From a virus (Duplodnaviria > Heunggongvirae > Uroviricota > Caudoviricetes), in IMG/VR virus record IMGVR_UViG_2740892426_000006: a stretch of DNA of 34,415 nucleotides; one strand, written 5' to 3'. Each line of letters starts with the position of its first letter. Within the stretch, counting starts at the first letter, position 1. Below, one piece after another: positions 2,713 to 15,354 of the stretch. Position numbers and translations under genes: made by a program. Under the pieces are notes generated by a model. That model had not been told where the DNA came from. It saw only the letters and a list, made by a program, of their open reading frames with translations, and did no database searches.

Positions 2713-3537
2713 TCAGGCGGTGAAAGTACCAATAAAGGTTTCTACTTTGCTGTCTTTGAATTTCTCAACAAGCAGATCACGAAATTCGTTAGCCATTTCT
2801 TCCTGCACCGCTTCCAGCTGAATAATGCGCAGAACCAGTACAGGACGATCGCCAGTGATAATGCTGAGGCGTAATTTAAACGGACGTTCTTTCAGACCTT
2901 CAAACGGAACGCATTTAAATTCAAATGCCACTGGCATAATGTCTTTGGTCTTCGCTTCGACAGACTCCATCAGGGAGCGTTTGCCGCTGAAGTCATTATC
3001 TTCAAAATCAGCGGTCTGGTTTGCTTCAATCGTGATTTTACGGACTGCCGCAGCCGCTTTTGTTGCTTGAATGGCGTCACCATTAGCATCAAAGCCCACA
3101 AGGTAGTCGGCCCAGTCTTCGATCCATTCTGCCAGTGACTTCTGGGAGTTACGCTCGCCGTTAACAGACAACAGAGCAGAGAACGGTGCTGTCTTTTTCA
3201 GTTTGAGAGTGGCAGTGTTATCTGCGTGACCTGGCTCATCAATAGTACCCAGGTTAAGCACACTGACGGCACGCATATTATCGGCATCGATAAAGCAGCG
3301 GGTGCCTTCATCTGCAAGATCTTTAGAATAACGGGTAAAATCATCGATGCTGGCAGTGGAAAGTGCACCACGGAAACGGAAGCGATTTAAATTAAATTTT
3401 TCCAGATCATGAATGCGGAAATTCTCAGGCAATGCCACAGCATCGGCACCAATCTTACTGATAATTTCATTAACACTCTGAGCAGAAATAAGGGCATGGA
3501 TTTGATTAATTGCGGTTGCGTCTAAGTTCTGAGACAT
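2713..3537 (-). CDS. conserved phage protein, 274 aa (YfdQ-like)
   Basis: Long clean ORF with a GAGGA-like Shine-Dalgarno; length and neighbourhood match my recollection of E. coli CPS-53 YfdQ. Confidence 0.55.
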
Positions 3538-3965: not shown

Positions 3966-4435
3966 TTTGCTGCTCCTCATCATATCGACCCTGCAAGGTC
4001 GGTTGGTTTCTCCACAAAACAGAGAAGAACACCTGCGGTGGCAGCCGCCCGGATGGATTGGGTTATGAGCCCGTCGTCCGGTGATGCTCTTCTCTGTTTT
4101 GCAAAAAAGGACGGTACCAGCCGGAAGCAAGGGTACAAACTGGTACCGCCAGGACTACACACAGCATAAAGTTGTGGTGCCGGGTGCCTCCCGGTGCCTG
4201 GCGAAGGTTGCACACCAGGCGGGTGGGTATCCACAGAAGGTCGACTGTCAGCCTCAACCTTAACCCGCGTGCGCTGAGCCGCATTCACCACAACGCTAAG
4301 GATTCTCTCTGGTTGAAAATACTTAGCTGTTATGTGCCTGCTTTTAGCCACATCAGGCGAGGTGGACCTGGTTATTCCCCAACAACAAGGATTCGGTTAA
4401 TCTGGATATCCCCAACAACAATAAGAGTATTCAAT

Positions 4436-4951
4436 GTGATCGCTGAATTAACGGCAGCAATGACGGCTATTCGTGAAACAGCCCAGATTGCAAAACTAAT
4501 GAACGAGGCAAAAACTCAAGCTGAAGTAAATGCGGCTATTGGTGAGCTGAACTCAAAGCTTGCGTCTATTCAGCGCGAATGCGTGTCTCTCGTTGAACTG
4601 GTGGGCTCTTATCAAGAAATAAATGCTTCTCTCAAAGCTAAAATTGCAGAATTCGAAAACTTTGAGGCTCAGACGGAAGGCTATATCCTTAACCAACTTG
4701 AGTCGGGTACTTTTGTATACTCGAAGGAGGTAATCGTGAACGGTGGCAGCATAACCATGCATCTTTGCCCAAAATGTTTTGGACAAAAGATAGTATCGAT
4801 ACTTCAACCATTCCCGGTTAGCGAAGATGAGCTTTTTCATAAAAGCAGGTGCCTCCACTGTGAAAATAAGTTTCTGATGAATAAAAATCCGGATTACGTA
4901 TCGCCTCCATCCATTGAGGAGTTGTCCAGAAAACTTAACGGCAATCTGTAG
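4436..4951 (+). CDS. coiled-coil protein with C-terminal CxxC-x24-CxxC zinc ribbon, unknown function
   Basis: GTG at 4436 (AAGAG 8 nt upstream) or ATG at 4460. About 80 aa of A/E/K/L-rich predicted coiled coil, then HLCPKCFGQ...RCLHCENKF. Followed by a terminator. The track ORF upstream of 4436 is R-rich low complexity. Confidence 0.5.
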   Translation: MIAELTAAMTAIRETAQIAKLMNEAKTQAEVNAAIGELNSKLASIQRECVSLVELVGSYQEINASLKAKIAEFENFEAQTEGYILNQLESGTFVYSKEVIVNGGSITMHLCPKCFGQKIVSILQPFPVSEDELFHKSRCLHCENKFLMNKNPDYVSPPSIEELSRKLNGNL

Positions 4952-4990
4952 ATTACTACTGTTGTGGATATCCAGATTGTTAAAGAGCTA

Positions 4991-5013
4991 AGCGTCCTGT
5001 AGGGCGCTTTTTT
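4991..5013 (+). terminator. rho-independent terminator after the 4436-4951 ORF
   Basis: Hairpin agcgtcc-tgta-gggcgct followed by a run of six T. Confidence 0.5.
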
Positions 5014-5096
5014 GTTGCTAACGAATCATCCTGGACTTCATATGCCCCAGGCGGCTACTTCGTGGGCGTCCTGCCTGTTCGTTATCTTTGATATAA

Positions 5097-5125
5097 AATC
5101 TAACTTAACTTAGTTATTATGGCAA
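5097..5125 (-). promoter_or_regulatory. candidate leftward promoter (pL-like) with embedded operator-like palindrome
   Basis: On the minus strand: TTGCCA, 17-nt spacer, TAGATT. The spacer contains CTAACTTAACTTAG, which resembles the palindromes in the cI-cro intergenic region. Confidence 0.3.
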
Positions 5126-5178
5126 GAGAAAACACCAAACTTTTCTTAGTTCGGTGCCTTAGTTAGAGAAGAGAGGTC

Positions 5179-5805
5179 TTAGAGTTCGTATTGAACTCCT
5201 TTGACTACACCAATGATAAGGCAATTACCATTGATAGGGATGTTGGGATACCGAGGATTTAATGGCACTAAAAACTTTTGAGGGCCATCGATGACTAATT
5301 TTTTTACTGTAGCTTCGTTTGTTCCATCAAGTCGAGCGATGACTATTTTTCCATGACGAGGTTCTGCATCTGGATCTACAATCACTGTTGCGCCTTCTGG
5401 TATTGTTGGGAGGCCATTAGGGTTAGTCATGGAGTCACCTTTAACCTCTAATGCAAATGAGTTATCACCAATCTTTAATGATGTATCTACCCACTTGTCC
5501 ACTTCACTAAACACTTCTGCTGCCCTGCACTCAGTAAACTGCCCAGCCTGAACCCACGATATTACAGGAACTCTGCGCATGTTTGTGACGAGTTTGCCTT
5601 CAAACTCAGCACCATAAAGAATGTAATCTATTGACGTATTGAAGAACTTCGCTAATTTCGAAAGTGCCTCCCCACCAGGGGTATTGATGTCTTTCTCCCA
5701 GTACCCCACAGCAACGTCGCTTACTCCACAAAATTTACCCAATTCTTTCTGGGACGTTCCGGTAACTCTTCTCAGAGCTTTTATACGCTGACCAACCGTT
5801 TCCAT
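5179..5805 (-). CDS. cI: CI-type prophage repressor (HTH plus LexA-like S24 autopeptidase domain)
   Basis: 208 aa; N-terminal HTH (SQKELGKFCGVSDVAVGYWE); C-terminal S24-like region with GDSM motif and a downstream K; divergent from cro. Confidence 0.85.
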   Translation of the reverse strand: METVGQRIKALRRVTGTSQKELGKFCGVSDVAVGYWEKDINTPGGEALSKLAKFFNTSIDYILYGAEFEGKLVTNMRRVPVISWVQAGQFTECRAAEVFSEVDKWVDTSLKIGDNSFALEVKGDSMTNPNGLPTIPEGATVIVDPDAEPRHGKIVIARLDGTNEATVKKLVIDGPQKFLVPLNPRYPNIPINGNCLIIGVVKGVQYEL

Positions 5806-11020: not shown

Positions 11021-11773
11021 ATGAACCTTGAAGCCTTACCAAAATATTACTCCCCAAAATCTCCAAAATTGAGCGATGACGCACCGGCGACAGGCTCAGG
11101 TGGTTTAACGATTACGGATGTGATGGCTGCGCAGGGGATGGTGCAGTCGAAAGCACCGCTTGGGTTTGCCTTATTCCTGGCAAAAGTTGGTGTTCAGGAT
11201 CCTCAGTTTGCGATTGAAGGTCTGCTCAATTACGCGATGGCAATGGATAACCCGACATTGAACAAATTGAGTGAAGAAACCCGGTTACAGATCATCCCTT
11301 ACCTTGTGAGTTTTGCCTTTGCTGATTATTCCAGGTCTGCGGCAAGTAAGGCTCGCTGTGAGCATTGTGCTGGTACTGGATTTCATAGTGTATTGCGCGA
11401 AGTGGTGAAACACTCCAGAAGCGGGGAATCTGTTATCAAGGAAGAGTGGGTGAAGGAATTATGTCAGCATTGCCATGGTAAGGGAGAAGTCAGCACGGCT
11501 TGCAGAGGGTGTAAGGGTAAAGGCATTGTCCTGGATGAAAAAAGAACCCGGCTTCATGGCGCGCCTGTTTATAAGATTTGTGGGCGTTGCAATGGAAACC
11601 GGTTTAGTCGTTTACCGACCACACTGGCACGACGTCATGTCCAGAAGCTGGTACCAGACCTGACTGATTATCAGTGGTACAAAGGATATGCAGACGTCAT
11701 TGATAAACTGGTAACAAAGTGCTGGCAGGAAGAAGCATTCGCTGAAGCACAATTGAGAAAGGTGACGAGATAA
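11021..11773 (+). CDS. Q: late-gene antiterminator Q (QuuQ-type, 250 aa)
   Basis: 250 aa with Cys/His clusters (CEHCAGTG, CQHCHGKG, CRGCKGKG, CGRCNG); followed by a promoter/terminator module. Confidence 0.7.
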   Translation: MNLEALPKYYSPKSPKLSDDAPATGSGGLTITDVMAAQGMVQSKAPLGFALFLAKVGVQDPQFAIEGLLNYAMAMDNPTLNKLSEETRLQIIPYLVSFAFADYSRSAASKARCEHCAGTGFHSVLREVVKHSRSGESVIKEEWVKELCQHCHGKGEVSTACRGCKGKGIVLDEKRTRLHGAPVYKICGRCNGNRFSRLPTTLARRHVQKLVPDLTDYQWYKGYADVIDKLVTKCWQEEAFAEAQLRKVTR

Positions 11774-11802
11774 GTGATTTTCACCGAAGATGGCGACATG
11801 AT

Positions 11803-11838
11803 GCTTGCATTTCTCAAAAAATATGGATAAGATTTTCC
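11803..11838 (+). promoter_or_regulatory. candidate late promoter pR' (with qut)
   Basis: TTGCAT, 17-nt spacer, TAAGAT, directly downstream of Q; a short leader runs to the terminator at 11879-11910. Confidence 0.3.
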
Positions 11839-11878
11839 CAACGATGGGATTTGTATGTCTACCGTTGATGAGTCCAAG

Positions 11879-11910
11879 AACCCGCCGCCGAGCGGGTTAA
11901 ATTATTTTTT
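11879..11910 (+). terminator. rho-independent terminator (tR'-like)
   Basis: Stem aacccgc/gcgggtt with loop cgccga, then aaattatttttt. Confidence 0.55.
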
Positions 11911-12495: not shown

Positions 12496-12517
12496 ACCGC
12501 GTTCTCGCGGTTTTTTT
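12496..12517 (+). terminator. rho-independent terminator after the moron
   Basis: accgcg-ttct-cgcggt followed by a run of seven T. Confidence 0.5.
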
Positions 12518-12984: not shown

Positions 12985-14046
12985 ATGAAAAACACTGTAA
13001 AAATAAACAGTATTGATTTAATCAACGCTGATTGCCTGCATTTTATTCAGTCCCTGCCTGATGATTCCATTGACCTGATTGTTACCGATCCGCCTTACTT
13101 CAAGGTGAAACCCAACGGTTGGGACAATCAGTGGAAAGGGGACGAAGATTACCTTAAGTGGCTGGACCACTGTCTGGCCCAGTTCTGGCGGGTGTTGAAA
13201 CCTGCCGGAAGCCTTTACCTGTTCTGTGGGCATCGCCTGGCATCTGATATTGAGATCATGATGCGTGAACGTTTCAACGTGCTTAACCATATCATCTGGG
13301 CGAAGCCGTCCGGACGTTGGAATGGGTGTAATAAAGAAAGTCTGCGCGCATATTTTCCTGCCACAGAGCGCGTTCTGTTTGCTGAACATTACCGGGGGCC
13401 ATATCGCGGCAAAAGTGACGGCTATGTGGCAAAAGAAAGGGAACTCAAACAGCACATAATGGCACCGCTGATATCGTATTTCAGGGATGCTCGTGCCGAA
13501 CTGGGTATAACGGCAAAACAAATTGCCGAAGCCACAGGTAAGAAAAATATGGTTTCCCACTGGTTTGGTGCCAGTCAGTGGCAGTTGCCGAATGAGGCTG
13601 ACTACCGGAAGTTACAGGCACTGTTTTCCCGTATAGCGGCAGAGAAGTTTCAGGAACAACAACTGGAACAACCACACCACCAGTTGGTGGCATCTTATGA
13701 TTCACTGAATCGCAAATATTCTGAATTGCTGGATGAGTTTAAATCTCTCCGGCGCTATTTCTCCGTATCAGTCTCCGTGCCTTATACCGATGTCTGGATG
13801 CATAAACCCGTTCAGTTCTACCCGGGTAAACATCCGTGTGAGAAACCGGCGGATATGCTCAGGCAAATAATCAATGCCAGTAGTCGACCCGGCGATCTGG
13901 TTGCTGATTTCTTTATGGGATCCGGTTCCACAATAAAAGCAGCAATGGCGCTGGGGCGTCGGGCGTTAGGTGTTGAGCTTGAGACAGAGCGGTTTAATCA
14001 GACCATCCAGGAAATCAGTATGTTATCAGCAAATACAATTTTGTGA
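12985..14046 (+). CDS. orphan DNA methyltransferase (N6-adenine/N4-cytosine class; motif IV precedes motif I)
   Basis: DLIVTDPPY (motif IV) near the N-terminus and FFMGSGST (AdoMet-binding motif I) near the C-terminus; no restriction endonuclease gene adjacent. Confidence 0.8.
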   Translation: MKNTVKINSIDLINADCLHFIQSLPDDSIDLIVTDPPYFKVKPNGWDNQWKGDEDYLKWLDHCLAQFWRVLKPAGSLYLFCGHRLASDIEIMMRERFNVLNHIIWAKPSGRWNGCNKESLRAYFPATERVLFAEHYRGPYRGKSDGYVAKERELKQHIMAPLISYFRDARAELGITAKQIAEATGKKNMVSHWFGASQWQLPNEADYRKLQALFSRIAAEKFQEQQLEQPHHQLVASYDSLNRKYSELLDEFKSLRRYFSVSVSVPYTDVWMHKPVQFYPGKHPCEKPADMLRQIINASSRPGDLVADFFMGSGSTIKAAMALGRRALGVELETERFNQTIQEISMLSANTIL

Positions 14047-14288
14047 ATTAATTCAATTATTGGTGGGATGTCTGTGCCGTATAATGATTACAGATACAGT
14101 GTATCCTGCAATGCAGCAGGGCTGATGTGGTGGGTTGTACATAGCCTGCAAAGGATTGGCTTCATTAATTCATCGTTGATACAAGCGAGTCACGGTTGAC
14201 CACGCCAACGGCTCATCGGTAAAAATCCGACACCGTGTCTTCTTAACTCACTTATTGTTTCCACCCATGTTTTTGGATACCTGCTGTA

Positions 14289-14326
14289 GCTGTCAGATTA
14301 GCGCGATAATCTGACAGCTTTTTTTT
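14289..14326 (+). terminator. strong rho-independent terminator
   Basis: Perfect 12-bp stem gctgtcagatta/taatctgacagc with loop gcgcga, then eight T. Confidence 0.6.
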
Positions 14327-14617
14327 ACAACGAATCCTTCTGATCTGCTTTCGCGGGGCTTTTTTGTATCCGCTCCATGCCCGGCGTATAAGCGGAGGTT
14401 GGTCAGTTTTCTAAAAATTGAAATACCTCACAATTCAGCCAGTTAATGGTTGTTTGTCTGGCGAAGAGTTTGTAAATAAAAAAACGCATGGTGAATCCCC
14501 CTAAGCGGCGGGGCGAATCAGCAGTCAGTTCTGGGATAATCGCGGGTTCGTATGCTGATGCCGGACTCACCGGGAGGCACCCGGCACCATGCATCATGGT
14601 CATCCCCTTGTATGATA

Positions 14618-14642
14618 CCCCTCTCCGGAGGGGTATTTTTTG
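14618..14642 (+). terminator. rho-independent terminator
   Basis: cccctc-tccg-gagggg hairpin followed by tattttttgg. Confidence 0.45.
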
Positions 14643-15073
14643 GATAAAAAAGCCCGCGCTGGGAGGCACGGGCGGCAAGGAATAAAACGTGAAGAAATTT
14701 TCACAGGCGCATAATAATCCGATGTTGCCAGATTTTGCAACTGCATCATCTGGTTATTATGTGAGCTGGAAAATCAGATTCTGTATGGACTGAAGCCATG
14801 CTGTTATTTAGGGCCAAAGAGCTGGCTTTTTCCCGCCTTCTCTCCAGTAACGATTAATGAGAAAAGAATGAAATGCTTTTCCTGGGGAGGAGGGCAGTAG
14901 AAAAAAGAACCCGCCAGCAAAAATATGGGGGATGAACAGCTTTTGCTACTCAGGTTGCTGGCGGGTATGGTTCTTCATGAAATAAGAATGTTACGCGGTA
15001 TTTTTAATGAAAATGATAATTATTGTCAATTGGTTGTGCGTATTTTTTCATACATGACTGGTAAAGGTGATTC

Positions 15074-15106
15074 AGGCCATCAGAGTTTTGCTGATGGCCT
15101 TTTTTC
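15074..15106 (+). terminator. rho-independent terminator just upstream of the holin (second tR'-like element)
   Basis: 10-bp stem aggccatcag/ctgatggcct with loop agttttg, then ttttt. Confidence 0.55.
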
Positions 15107-15138
15107 TTTCCGGTAGCACAGGTCTGTTGGGGCGGGAT

Positions 15139-15354
15139 ATGTATCAGATGGAAAAAATATCAACAGGCATTGCCTACGGCACCTCCGCAGGCAGTGCTGG
15201 CTACTGGTTTTTACAATGGCTTGATCAGGTTAGTCCGTCTCAGTGGGCTGCGATTGGTGTACTGGGAAGTCTGGTTCTGGGCTTTCTGACTTATCTGACG
15301 AATCTGTACTTCAAAATCAGAGAAGACAGAAGAAAGGCTGCGAGAGGAGAGTAA
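15139..15354 (+). CDS. S: phage 21-type class II holin (pinholin) with dual-start motif
   Basis: 71 aa [71 protein letters not shown]; Met1 and Met4 mirror the S21-71/S21-68 dual starts; two TM segments. Confidence 0.8.

Follow-up and report, generated by a model that had tools for sequence, protein, structure and literature searches.

The 34,415-nucleotide stretch of DNA analysed here (IMG/VR record IMGVR_UViG_2740892426_000006; "the window") is a lambdoid prophage of extraintestinal Escherichia coli (ExPEC; the lineage of IHE3034 and APEC O78), and it contains a non-coding gap of 1,092 bases (14047-15138) between a gene for an N6/N4 DNA methylase (12985-14046) and one for an S21-type holin (15139-15354). 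We consider it probable that this gap is a small-RNA (sRNA) gene cluster occupying the Q-to-holin cargo slot, the position at which Stx2 (Shiga toxin 2) phages hold the stx2 locus. Judged from sequence, most sRNAs of the cluster are of types familiar from Shiga-toxin phages; one, which we call A1, is a diverged copy that had not been recognised before. The late strand would carry two tandem sRNA genes of the STnc100/PasD fold (A1, approximately 14092-14326, and STnc100, 14486-14645), each with a core of 105–145 nt closed by a long-range helix, a single-stranded tail and an intrinsic terminator of its own. An earlier examination of the letters without database searches (the sequence-only reading) had seen three terminators, a possible sRNA of about 230 nt and a proposed second late promoter/terminator unit in this gap; as described below, the first two held up and the third did not.

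Predicted tandem STnc100-fold genes on the late strand

An Rfam search, which had been suggested as a check, identified the middle part of the gap as STnc100 (RF02076; 14457-14645, plus strand), at 114.5 bits (gathering score 47; E 1.5e-24, model positions 1-206). All features expected of a member were found: the closing helix P1 (GCAUGGUG/CACCAUGC), a CCCCC/GGGGG hairpin, the hairpin P5 (CCGGG-AGGCA-CCCGG) and an intrinsic terminator, which is the second of the three terminators in the gap. The core (14486-14592) scored 89.1 bits with a separate core model, R1 (below). By these matches, 14457-14645 is clearly predicted to be a typical STnc100 sRNA gene. A weak promoter-like site, TTGTTT (14450)-17-TAAATA (14473), matches the PasD2 promoter in position. 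A known location of STnc100 is 75 nt downstream of stx2B, where it overlaps EcOnc27/sRNA103, which binds Hfq (PMC12711010), and eleven transcribed copies have been described in EDL933, one of them verified by Northern blot (PMC5331693).

This identification also accounts for several features that had been listed separately. The palindrome ACCATGCATCATGGT is present at 14586-14600; it arises because a near copy of the 5' strand of P1 comes after the 3' strand (CACCAUGC, 14585-14592). The repeat GGGAGGCAC is present twice, at 14572-14580 and 14661-14669 (each one base off the position first given), with the first occurrence forming the CCGGG-AGGCA-CCCGG hairpin of STnc100 and the second lying in the terminator of the convergent PapR-like sRNA discussed below. 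Palindrome, repeat and second terminator are thus real, but as parts of these two genes rather than as separate oddities. The repeat alone is not beyond chance, because six other exact direct repeats of 9–10 nt occur in the same 1.2 kb. The idea that the two copies let STnc100 and the PapR-like RNA interact as a kissing pair was rejected, because the PapR loop reads GGGAGACGC in the Stx2a and EPEC (enteropathogenic E. coli) copies, so that there is no covariation between the two sites; the pair was treated as chance or as a shared Shine-Dalgarno-like motif. The longest open reading frame (ORF) in the gap (91 codons, 14403-14678, minus strand) runs antisense to STnc100 and matches two PHROG families of unknown function, the sole family hits obtained. 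Several phage and RefSeq records annotate ORFs in this antisense position (also 4886-5191, minus strand, in locus L001) as hypothetical proteins, probably by mistaking RNA genes for protein genes.

Upstream of STnc100, A1 is a self-contained module reaching from about 14037 to 14326, with conservation that begins approximately 8 nt before the methylase stop codon. Its promoter-like stretch (14037-14092) has a perfect -10 element, TATAAT, at 14080-14085 (previously placed at 14081-14086), and the first helix starts 9 nt after it. The core (14094-14238, 145 nt) is closed by P1 (14094-14101 with 14231-14238) and includes a P2 hairpin, P4, P5 (UCGG-UAAAAAU-CCGA) and, tentatively, P3 (GUGGU/ACCAC). 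It is followed by a pyrimidine- and U-rich linker of 49 nt (14239-14287), unpaired in the consensus fold, and by terminator 1 (14288-14327), which also ends any read-through transcript from the methylase gene. A1 occurs in a form that is nearly identical in about 123 genomes and in three diverged forms. One (L006 and L023) is 82% identical and has methylase, A1 and holin adjacent; in the second (L010 and L013) the central part is replaced; and the third (L007) is 72% identical and lies in an island that has no methylase gene. TATAAT is retained in every form, and the whole promoter stretch is conserved in the window, L006 and L007. In L006 (3001-3340) and L023, the A1 terminator takes the place of the third terminator of the window, some 50 nt before the holin start.

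These four variants, recovered from E. coli genomes and IMG/VR, were folded together using RNAalifold and explicit pair counts, giving a consensus of five helices in the 145-nt core. In this fold 98.3% of the cells are paired, compared to 29–51% in slid controls. Four pairs are changed on both sides, a count that 3 of 500 shuffles reached (with only four sequences). Compensatory pairs occur in P2, P3, P4 and the terminator, where L006 has AUU/AAU replaced by ACG/CGU. The linker blocks ACUCACUU-UUGUUU and CCCAUGUUUUUGGAU are kept between the window type and the L006 type, and we infer from the analysis that the linker is a candidate base-pairing (seed) region, like the tail of PasD. Homologues outside E. 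coli were not found by exact 23-mer search of one genome per species, nor was A1 found by blastn in 50,697 phage genomes.

Among 4227 Rfam families, the top match for A1 was STnc100, over the full length (17.6 bits, E 0.11). Since this match was full length but had so low a score, we modelled the STnc100 core (model R1) on 14 diverse sequences of IMG/VR, with neither A1 nor the window among them. R1 matched the four A1 variants end to end (1-124 of 124), at exactly the coordinates of the independent fold, with 29.9, 28.5 and 25.6 bits for the three other than the window copy (E 7e-5 to 7e-4; E-values of both models are rough). For comparison, PasD2 scored 46.3 bits. In the reverse direction, model R2, built from the four A1 cores alone, matched true STnc100 elements in L034, L001, L037, L046 and L057 with 19.7–31.7 bits, and elements of the STnc100/PasD family made up 14 of its 15 best non-self matches. 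The helix order (P1 closing, P2, P4, and P5 abutting the 3' strand of P1) was recovered by independent models in both directions. The proposal of an sRNA at 14092-14326 is therefore backed by a TATAAT conserved in three diverged variants, one of them with no adjoining methylase, by compensatory changes in core and terminator, and by reciprocal covariance-model matches. As predicted from these matches, A1 is a diverged, previously unrecognised tandem paralogue of the STnc100/PasD fold, though not an RF02076 member by the Rfam criterion.

A tandem pair is not surprising, as tandem copies of STnc100 are common in other prophages: one IMG/VR prophage has four STnc100-fold genes in a row (L034 2326-3350, minus strand), and about nine other loci have two copies 230–480 nt apart. 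The window itself has a third paralogue at 4105..4293 (minus strand), in the early/immunity region downstream of an S24/HTH repressor gene (5179-5805, minus strand). It consists of a core (4293..4172), a short tail and a terminator (GGUACCAG...CUGGUACC followed by U6), and it was matched by R1 over its full length (46.6 bits, E 1.2e-8), while going unreported by the Rfam scan at gathering threshold. This prophage thus has three STnc100-fold copies, L034 has four in tandem and EDL933 has eleven. PasD and STnc100 have been proposed to be of common ancestry (bioRxiv 10.64898/2026.05.13.724894), and targets of PasD are known from Hfq RIL-seq (RNA interaction by ligation and sequencing; PMC8550237).

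Across the family, the strand directly after P2 would pair with the loop of P4 (P3), a putative pseudoknot, which cannot be represented in the Rfam model. At least six different sequence pairs could form it: AUCAGCA/UGCUGAU, CUGGUG/CACCGG, UAAUGAC/GUCAUUG, UAUCAGUAC/GUACUGAUA, CUGGCU/AGCCAG and, in PasD2, AAUGAUCGAG/UUUGAUCAUU. P values per class range from 0.000 to 0.14, and the u17/u39 class has a nested variant. In several members (14586-14600 of the window, u41 and u9), a copy of the P1 5' strand after the P1 3' strand allows a local hairpin to form in competition with the closing helix; that of u41 is a perfect 7-bp hairpin (CACCAUG-UU-CAUGGUG). By its sequence, this alternative hairpin may serve as a structural switch. 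Conservation is far higher in the core than in the tails, and the 3' tails appear to be exchangeable.

Minus-strand elements

Two minus-strand elements were overlooked in the sequence-only reading: a terminator at 14673..14652 and a hairpin with a U-run at 14966..14899. The former belongs to a gene convergent with STnc100 (14645..14744) that has the 3' part of a PapR-family sRNA. Its terminator (-16.7 kcal/mol, containing the second GGGAGGCAC) runs into a U-run and is preceded by a CCUUGCC seed (14680..14674), and the stretch that would pair with papI spans 14683..14662. Identity to PapR is about 71% over the 3' 100 nt, with the last 45 nt near-identical. Published primers for cloning PapR of UTI89 match the homologous locus in the Stx2a phage and in prophage PP6 of EPEC, which supports the PapR identity, and the predicted convergent sRNA is, on this sequence match, of the PapR type. 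However, only about 100 of some 180 nt are kept, the 5' 80 nt or so being absent or replaced; homology ends at 14744, so the mapped PapR 5' end and its promoter are missing. A promoter-like site (TTGCAA-18-TATTAT, 14740..14711) could give an RNA of about 60 nt, or may just as well once have been internal to PapR. When pairing with papI was scored by a 22-mer mismatch scan, AUUCCUUGCCGCCCGUGCCUCC had the same Watson-Crick mismatch count against papI nt 75-96 as the Stx2a copy, and the best 22-mer in shuffled papI reached that count at least once in 200 shuffles.

PapR represses papI (PMC4546395); an Lrp-activated promoter and Hfq-dependent stability are known for the UTI89 PapR only. The EPEC homologue is the RIL-seq hub "E2348C_1409.E2348C_1408.IGR", equated with EcOnc08/21/42, and its targets have GGCAAGG motifs (PMC8550237). 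In PP6 of E2348/69 (L026 1577-3155), STnc100 is split by the IS4-like ISEc13, and the adjoining convergent PapR-type sRNA is intact and highly connected in RIL-seq. We also considered the convergent RNA as Esr41, which Zhu et al. placed near PasD. This was rejected, as there was no Rfam hit at E <= 10 and Esr41 maps to SpLE1.

To the right lies a non-coding mosaic module, segment C (14742-15109), which is about 85% identical to copies on ColV/IncF plasmids and in pap islands. A related fragment of 362 bp was found in 1,451 of 5,426 complete E. coli genomes (27%), located beside iss on ColV/IncF plasmids and beside an Rz remnant in pap pathogenicity islands; the copies examined are flanked by insertion sequence (IS) elements. 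On the ColV plasmid p111 (L002 4366-4487), the homologue directly adjoins STnc490 (an IS200 antisense RNA region), which is followed by iss, an arrangement suggesting that the lysis genes between were lost to an IS200-type event.

Within segment C, a promoter-like site on the minus strand (15029..15001, scoring 10/12) combines the -35 TTGACA (15029..15024) with the -10 TAAAAA (15006..15001). Transcription is predicted to start near 14994 and would give an RNA with a U-rich 5' stretch, a stem of 12 bp (14966..14909) and a U-run that stops near 14899; the feature as a whole spans 14899..15029. The hairpin 14966..14899 folds at -27.4 kcal/mol (z -5.9). TTGACA and the stem are invariant in four variants, with substitutions falling in loops, while the flanks differ by 15%. 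We consider 14994..14899 a candidate sRNA on these sequence features; it matched no Rfam family. A 10-codon ORF (MKNHTRQQPE, 14967-14936, minus strand) keeps its start and stop in the four variants despite amino-acid changes, and it has no Shine-Dalgarno sequence. Homology to PasA/PasC was looked for using blastn (word size 7) against PP2 and PP5 of E2348/69, where only the holin region matched; it was rejected and the analogy of position kept. PasB, between tail genes I and J in E2348/69, lies outside this region. On the plus strand, 15009-15105 matched SgrS (RF00534) with 24.8 bits, below the gathering score of 37, and with only the 3' third of the model aligned; other sRNA models match this terminator too, with 16–19 bits. 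A sequence similar to the seed region of SgrS, CAUACAUGACUGGUAAAGGUG, is retained in the ColV and island copies and, as in SgrS, has a terminator after it; SgrT has no counterpart here. It is just as possible that this DNA regulates the minus-strand promoter from upstream.

Prophage setting and terminators

The gap is 100% identical to 20Ec-P-124 and 99.8% identical to IHE3034, APEC O78 and PMV-1, and all 1,092 bases are held by 123 of 5,426 complete genomes. To its left lie a DUF968 gene, the antiterminator gene Q (11021-11773, PF03589), two small phage genes without known function and the methylase gene; 3' of the holin are a DUF1327 gene, lysozyme and Rz, with Bor/Iss on the opposite strand. 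Just after Q, at 11800-11910, we found a probable late promoter (TTGCAT-17-TAAGAT) followed by a hairpin (AACCCGCCGCCGAGCGGGTT) with a T-run, the likely tR' (11879-11910). Another terminator (12496-12511) lies 3' of a gene of 176 codons. A tRNA search of the window found none. A decayed terminator remnant at 14344-14376 (plus strand), which had been overlooked, is homologous to the post-tRNA terminator upstream of stx2A in the Stx2a phage: it is 83% identical to L001 3499-3528, directly after the tRNA at 3404-3477 (a weak match, E 0.03), and its hairpin (14344-14362) is weak (-4.3 kcal/mol, z -0.6). Mosaic junctions lie near 14326-14347 and 14742-14744 in the gap. To this extent the suggestion of modules of different origin was sound, though two late-control modules find no support.

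The claim that the gap contains no credible ORF stands: the longest have 91, 65 and 63 codons, and variants of the gap, including those of segment C, carry frameshifting indels. A 24-codon ORF inside A1 was discarded as it is lost in L007, as were ORFs of 63 and 38 codons in segment C, which are frameshifted in the ColV and island copies. All three plus-strand terminators are present and strong: terminator 1 (14288-14319 plus T8, to 14327) has a 13-bp stem and folds at -20.0 kcal/mol (z -6.0), terminator 2 (14614-14637 plus T6, the element reaching from 14614 to 14645) at -17.6 kcal/mol (z -3.5) and terminator 3 (15074-15100 plus T6, to 15106) at -17.3 kcal/mol (z -4.2), and none of 200 shuffles folded as well. 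The surrounding 4.5 kb have 19 terminator-like sites compared to 4.6 +/- 2.3 in shuffles, approximately four times as many. Terminator 3 ends 33 nt upstream of the holin start codon (15139). Its position is conserved before S21-type holins, with homologous hairpins in the Stx2a phage (L001 7884-7916) and EPEC (L026 5454-5490), and where the holin is missing, in plasmid and island remnants, the hairpin has decayed. By analogy to lambda, we infer that it would act as an insulator of the lysis cassette.

Taken together, these elements suggest how the cluster might work. In the lysogen, the sRNA genes would be transcribed from weak sigma-70 promoters of their own and end at their own terminators, and the RNAs might act by Hfq-dependent base pairing on host or island mRNAs, by the example of PasD, PapR and EcOnc27. 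The series of plus-strand terminators would shield the lysis genes from sRNA transcription. On induction, Q-modified RNA polymerase starting just downstream of Q would read through all of them; both read-through and insulation are expected from established lambda biology.

Alternative explanations and comparison with known systems

Several observations weigh against a cluster of working sRNA genes. A consensus promoter scan of 14047-15138 gave no plus-strand promoter; that of A1 was not reported because its -35 (TTATTG) is poor, and the STnc100 site scores just 7/12. The near identity of the gap over about 123 genomes is recent common descent, not selection. A1 falls below the gathering score of 47 and is for this reason not filed as an RF02076 member, its window copy is the weakest A1 match to R1 (16.6 bits, E 0.075) and has one mismatch and one wobble in P1, and its covariation rests on few events because only four variants exist. 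The P3 pseudoknot in A1 shows one compensatory change, in L007, and is not significant alone (P 0.74, 0.19). The PapR-like gene may be a dead remnant, since the 5' 80 nt and the promoter mapped for PapR are missing from it. The weak promoters and the truncated PapR, along with the clear mosaic junctions, the decayed tRNA-terminator remnant and the holin-proximal hairpin that decays in plasmid and island copies, could be read as recombination scar tissue: decayed remnants of module exchange in which STnc100 alone works, A1 is the 3' untranslated region of the methylase gene with its terminator, and the rest is inert. As there is no terminator between the methylase stop and 14288, methylase transcripts would indeed end at terminator 1. 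We nevertheless regard this explanation as unlikely, as the A1 module and its TATAAT are conserved in L007 with no methylase upstream, compensatory changes preserve its core helices and terminator, searches in both directions match its core to the fold of an expressed sRNA, and the minus-strand stem and -35 of segment C are invariant amid flanks that differ by 15%.

It is quite unlikely, though worth stating, that the STnc100 fold is more than a framework for base-pairing sRNAs and forms a compact pseudoknotted domain, present in several diverged prophage copies, whose core binds a protein or ligand for stability, for signal sensing or to switch its own terminator via 14586-14600; if true, A1 would represent a deeply diverged branch of which no member had been recognised before. 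We consider it very unlikely that the cores are cis-acting, riboswitch-like or protein-binding domains that control their own downstream terminators and so tune read-through to the lysis genes. The arrangement does resemble an aptamer with an expression platform (P1, then a terminator within 20–50 nt), the alternative P1-strand hairpin occurs in several members, the core is better conserved than the tails and an apparently covarying pseudoknot suggests a compact fold. However, PasD and EcOnc27 are Hfq-bound and have trans targets, the variable tails hold the seeds, some copies have no obvious downstream feature, A1 has no alternative hairpin, and Q-modified polymerase would ignore the terminators anyway. 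Finally, the sequence-only reading had taken 15024-15106 for a second pR'/tR'-type unit of different origin, with the cargo inserted between two late-control modules. TTGTCA is present at 15023-15028, with a strong terminator about 50 nt downstream just before the holin, and in lambda pR'-tR' lies directly upstream of S. Yet this proposal is highly improbable, as the site failed the promoter scan and has no acceptable -10 at a spacing of 16–18 nt (the best, TTTCAT, has no A at position 2). In the ColV copy the plus-strand -35 reads CTGTCA, and spacer length is variable, while the same bases read as the invariant TTGACA on the minus strand. In addition, 14980-15138 has no similarity to the tested regions downstream of Q, the unit lies 3.2 kb from the Q stop (11773) while a terminator occupies the canonical position at 11879-11910, and the equivalent terminator in the Stx2a phage directly follows the stop codon of the DUF826 gene.

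If the preferred explanation holds, the Q-to-holin slot of ExPEC is organised like the stx2 locus with sRNA genes in place of the toxin, and ExPEC prophages would thereby bring in regulators of families that tune virulence in enterohaemorrhagic E. coli (EHEC), EPEC and uropathogenic E. coli. A1 indicates that annotation by Rfam threshold misses part of the STnc100/PasD family, for which tandem arrays appear to be a route of diversification, and the covarying pseudoknot, if confirmed, would offer a hypothesis for a conserved core with changing seeds. The general picture of lambdoid late regulation is unchanged.

The closest known arrangement is that of the Stx2a phage (LC645409), in which Q is followed by a 95-nt remnant of the same methylase gene, three tRNAs, a terminator, stx2A and stx2B, and then by STnc100, PapR, the nanS-p esterase gene, DUF826, a terminator and the holin. 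The window has an intact methylase gene, A1 would occupy the place of the tRNAs and the stx slot is empty, while STnc100 and a PapR-type gene follow in both. Compared with STnc100/EcOnc27 (Sakai)/sRNA103 (EDL933) downstream of stx2B, the window copy is full-length, has the same helices and has the same position relative to the cargo genes and the convergent PapR-type sRNA. It is 73% identical overall to the Stx2a copy, from which it differs in its tail and terminator (CCCCUCUCCGGAGGGG, with the stem lengthened by AU pairs) and in following an empty stx slot and a methylase cargo gene.

With PasD1 and PasD2 of EPEC E2348/69, A1 shares the core fold and a location downstream of Q. The PasD seed lies in a long single-stranded tail before the terminator, and the A1 tail is arranged alike; PasD has no P5 hairpin, the A1 core resembles that of PasD only remotely in sequence, the A1 tail is unrelated, and the RIL-seq targets are those of PasD, while A1 is known here from its sequence. 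Relative to PapR (UTI89), the EPEC intergenic sRNA and EHEC EcOnc08/21/42, the PapR-type gene keeps the strand, the convergent position beside STnc100, the terminator, the CCUUGCC seed and the 22-nt papI stretch. It has a 7-nt deletion upstream of the seed, and the mapped 5' end and Lrp-dependent promoter region of PapR are replaced by the ColV/island-type module. Both the candidate RNA of segment C and PasA of EPEC lie on the strand opposite the holin, 150–220 nt upstream of it, with a plus-strand terminator between; the terminator stem is built on GCCAGCA/UGCUGGC as in PasA/PasC, and the loop of the candidate is much longer. Like the lambda pR'-tR' 6S RNA and StxS, 15024-15106 would be a short late-strand unit that ends at a promoter-proximal terminator before the lysis genes, but unlike those two it is not adjacent to Q and has no usable -10, the canonical position in this prophage being 11800-11910.

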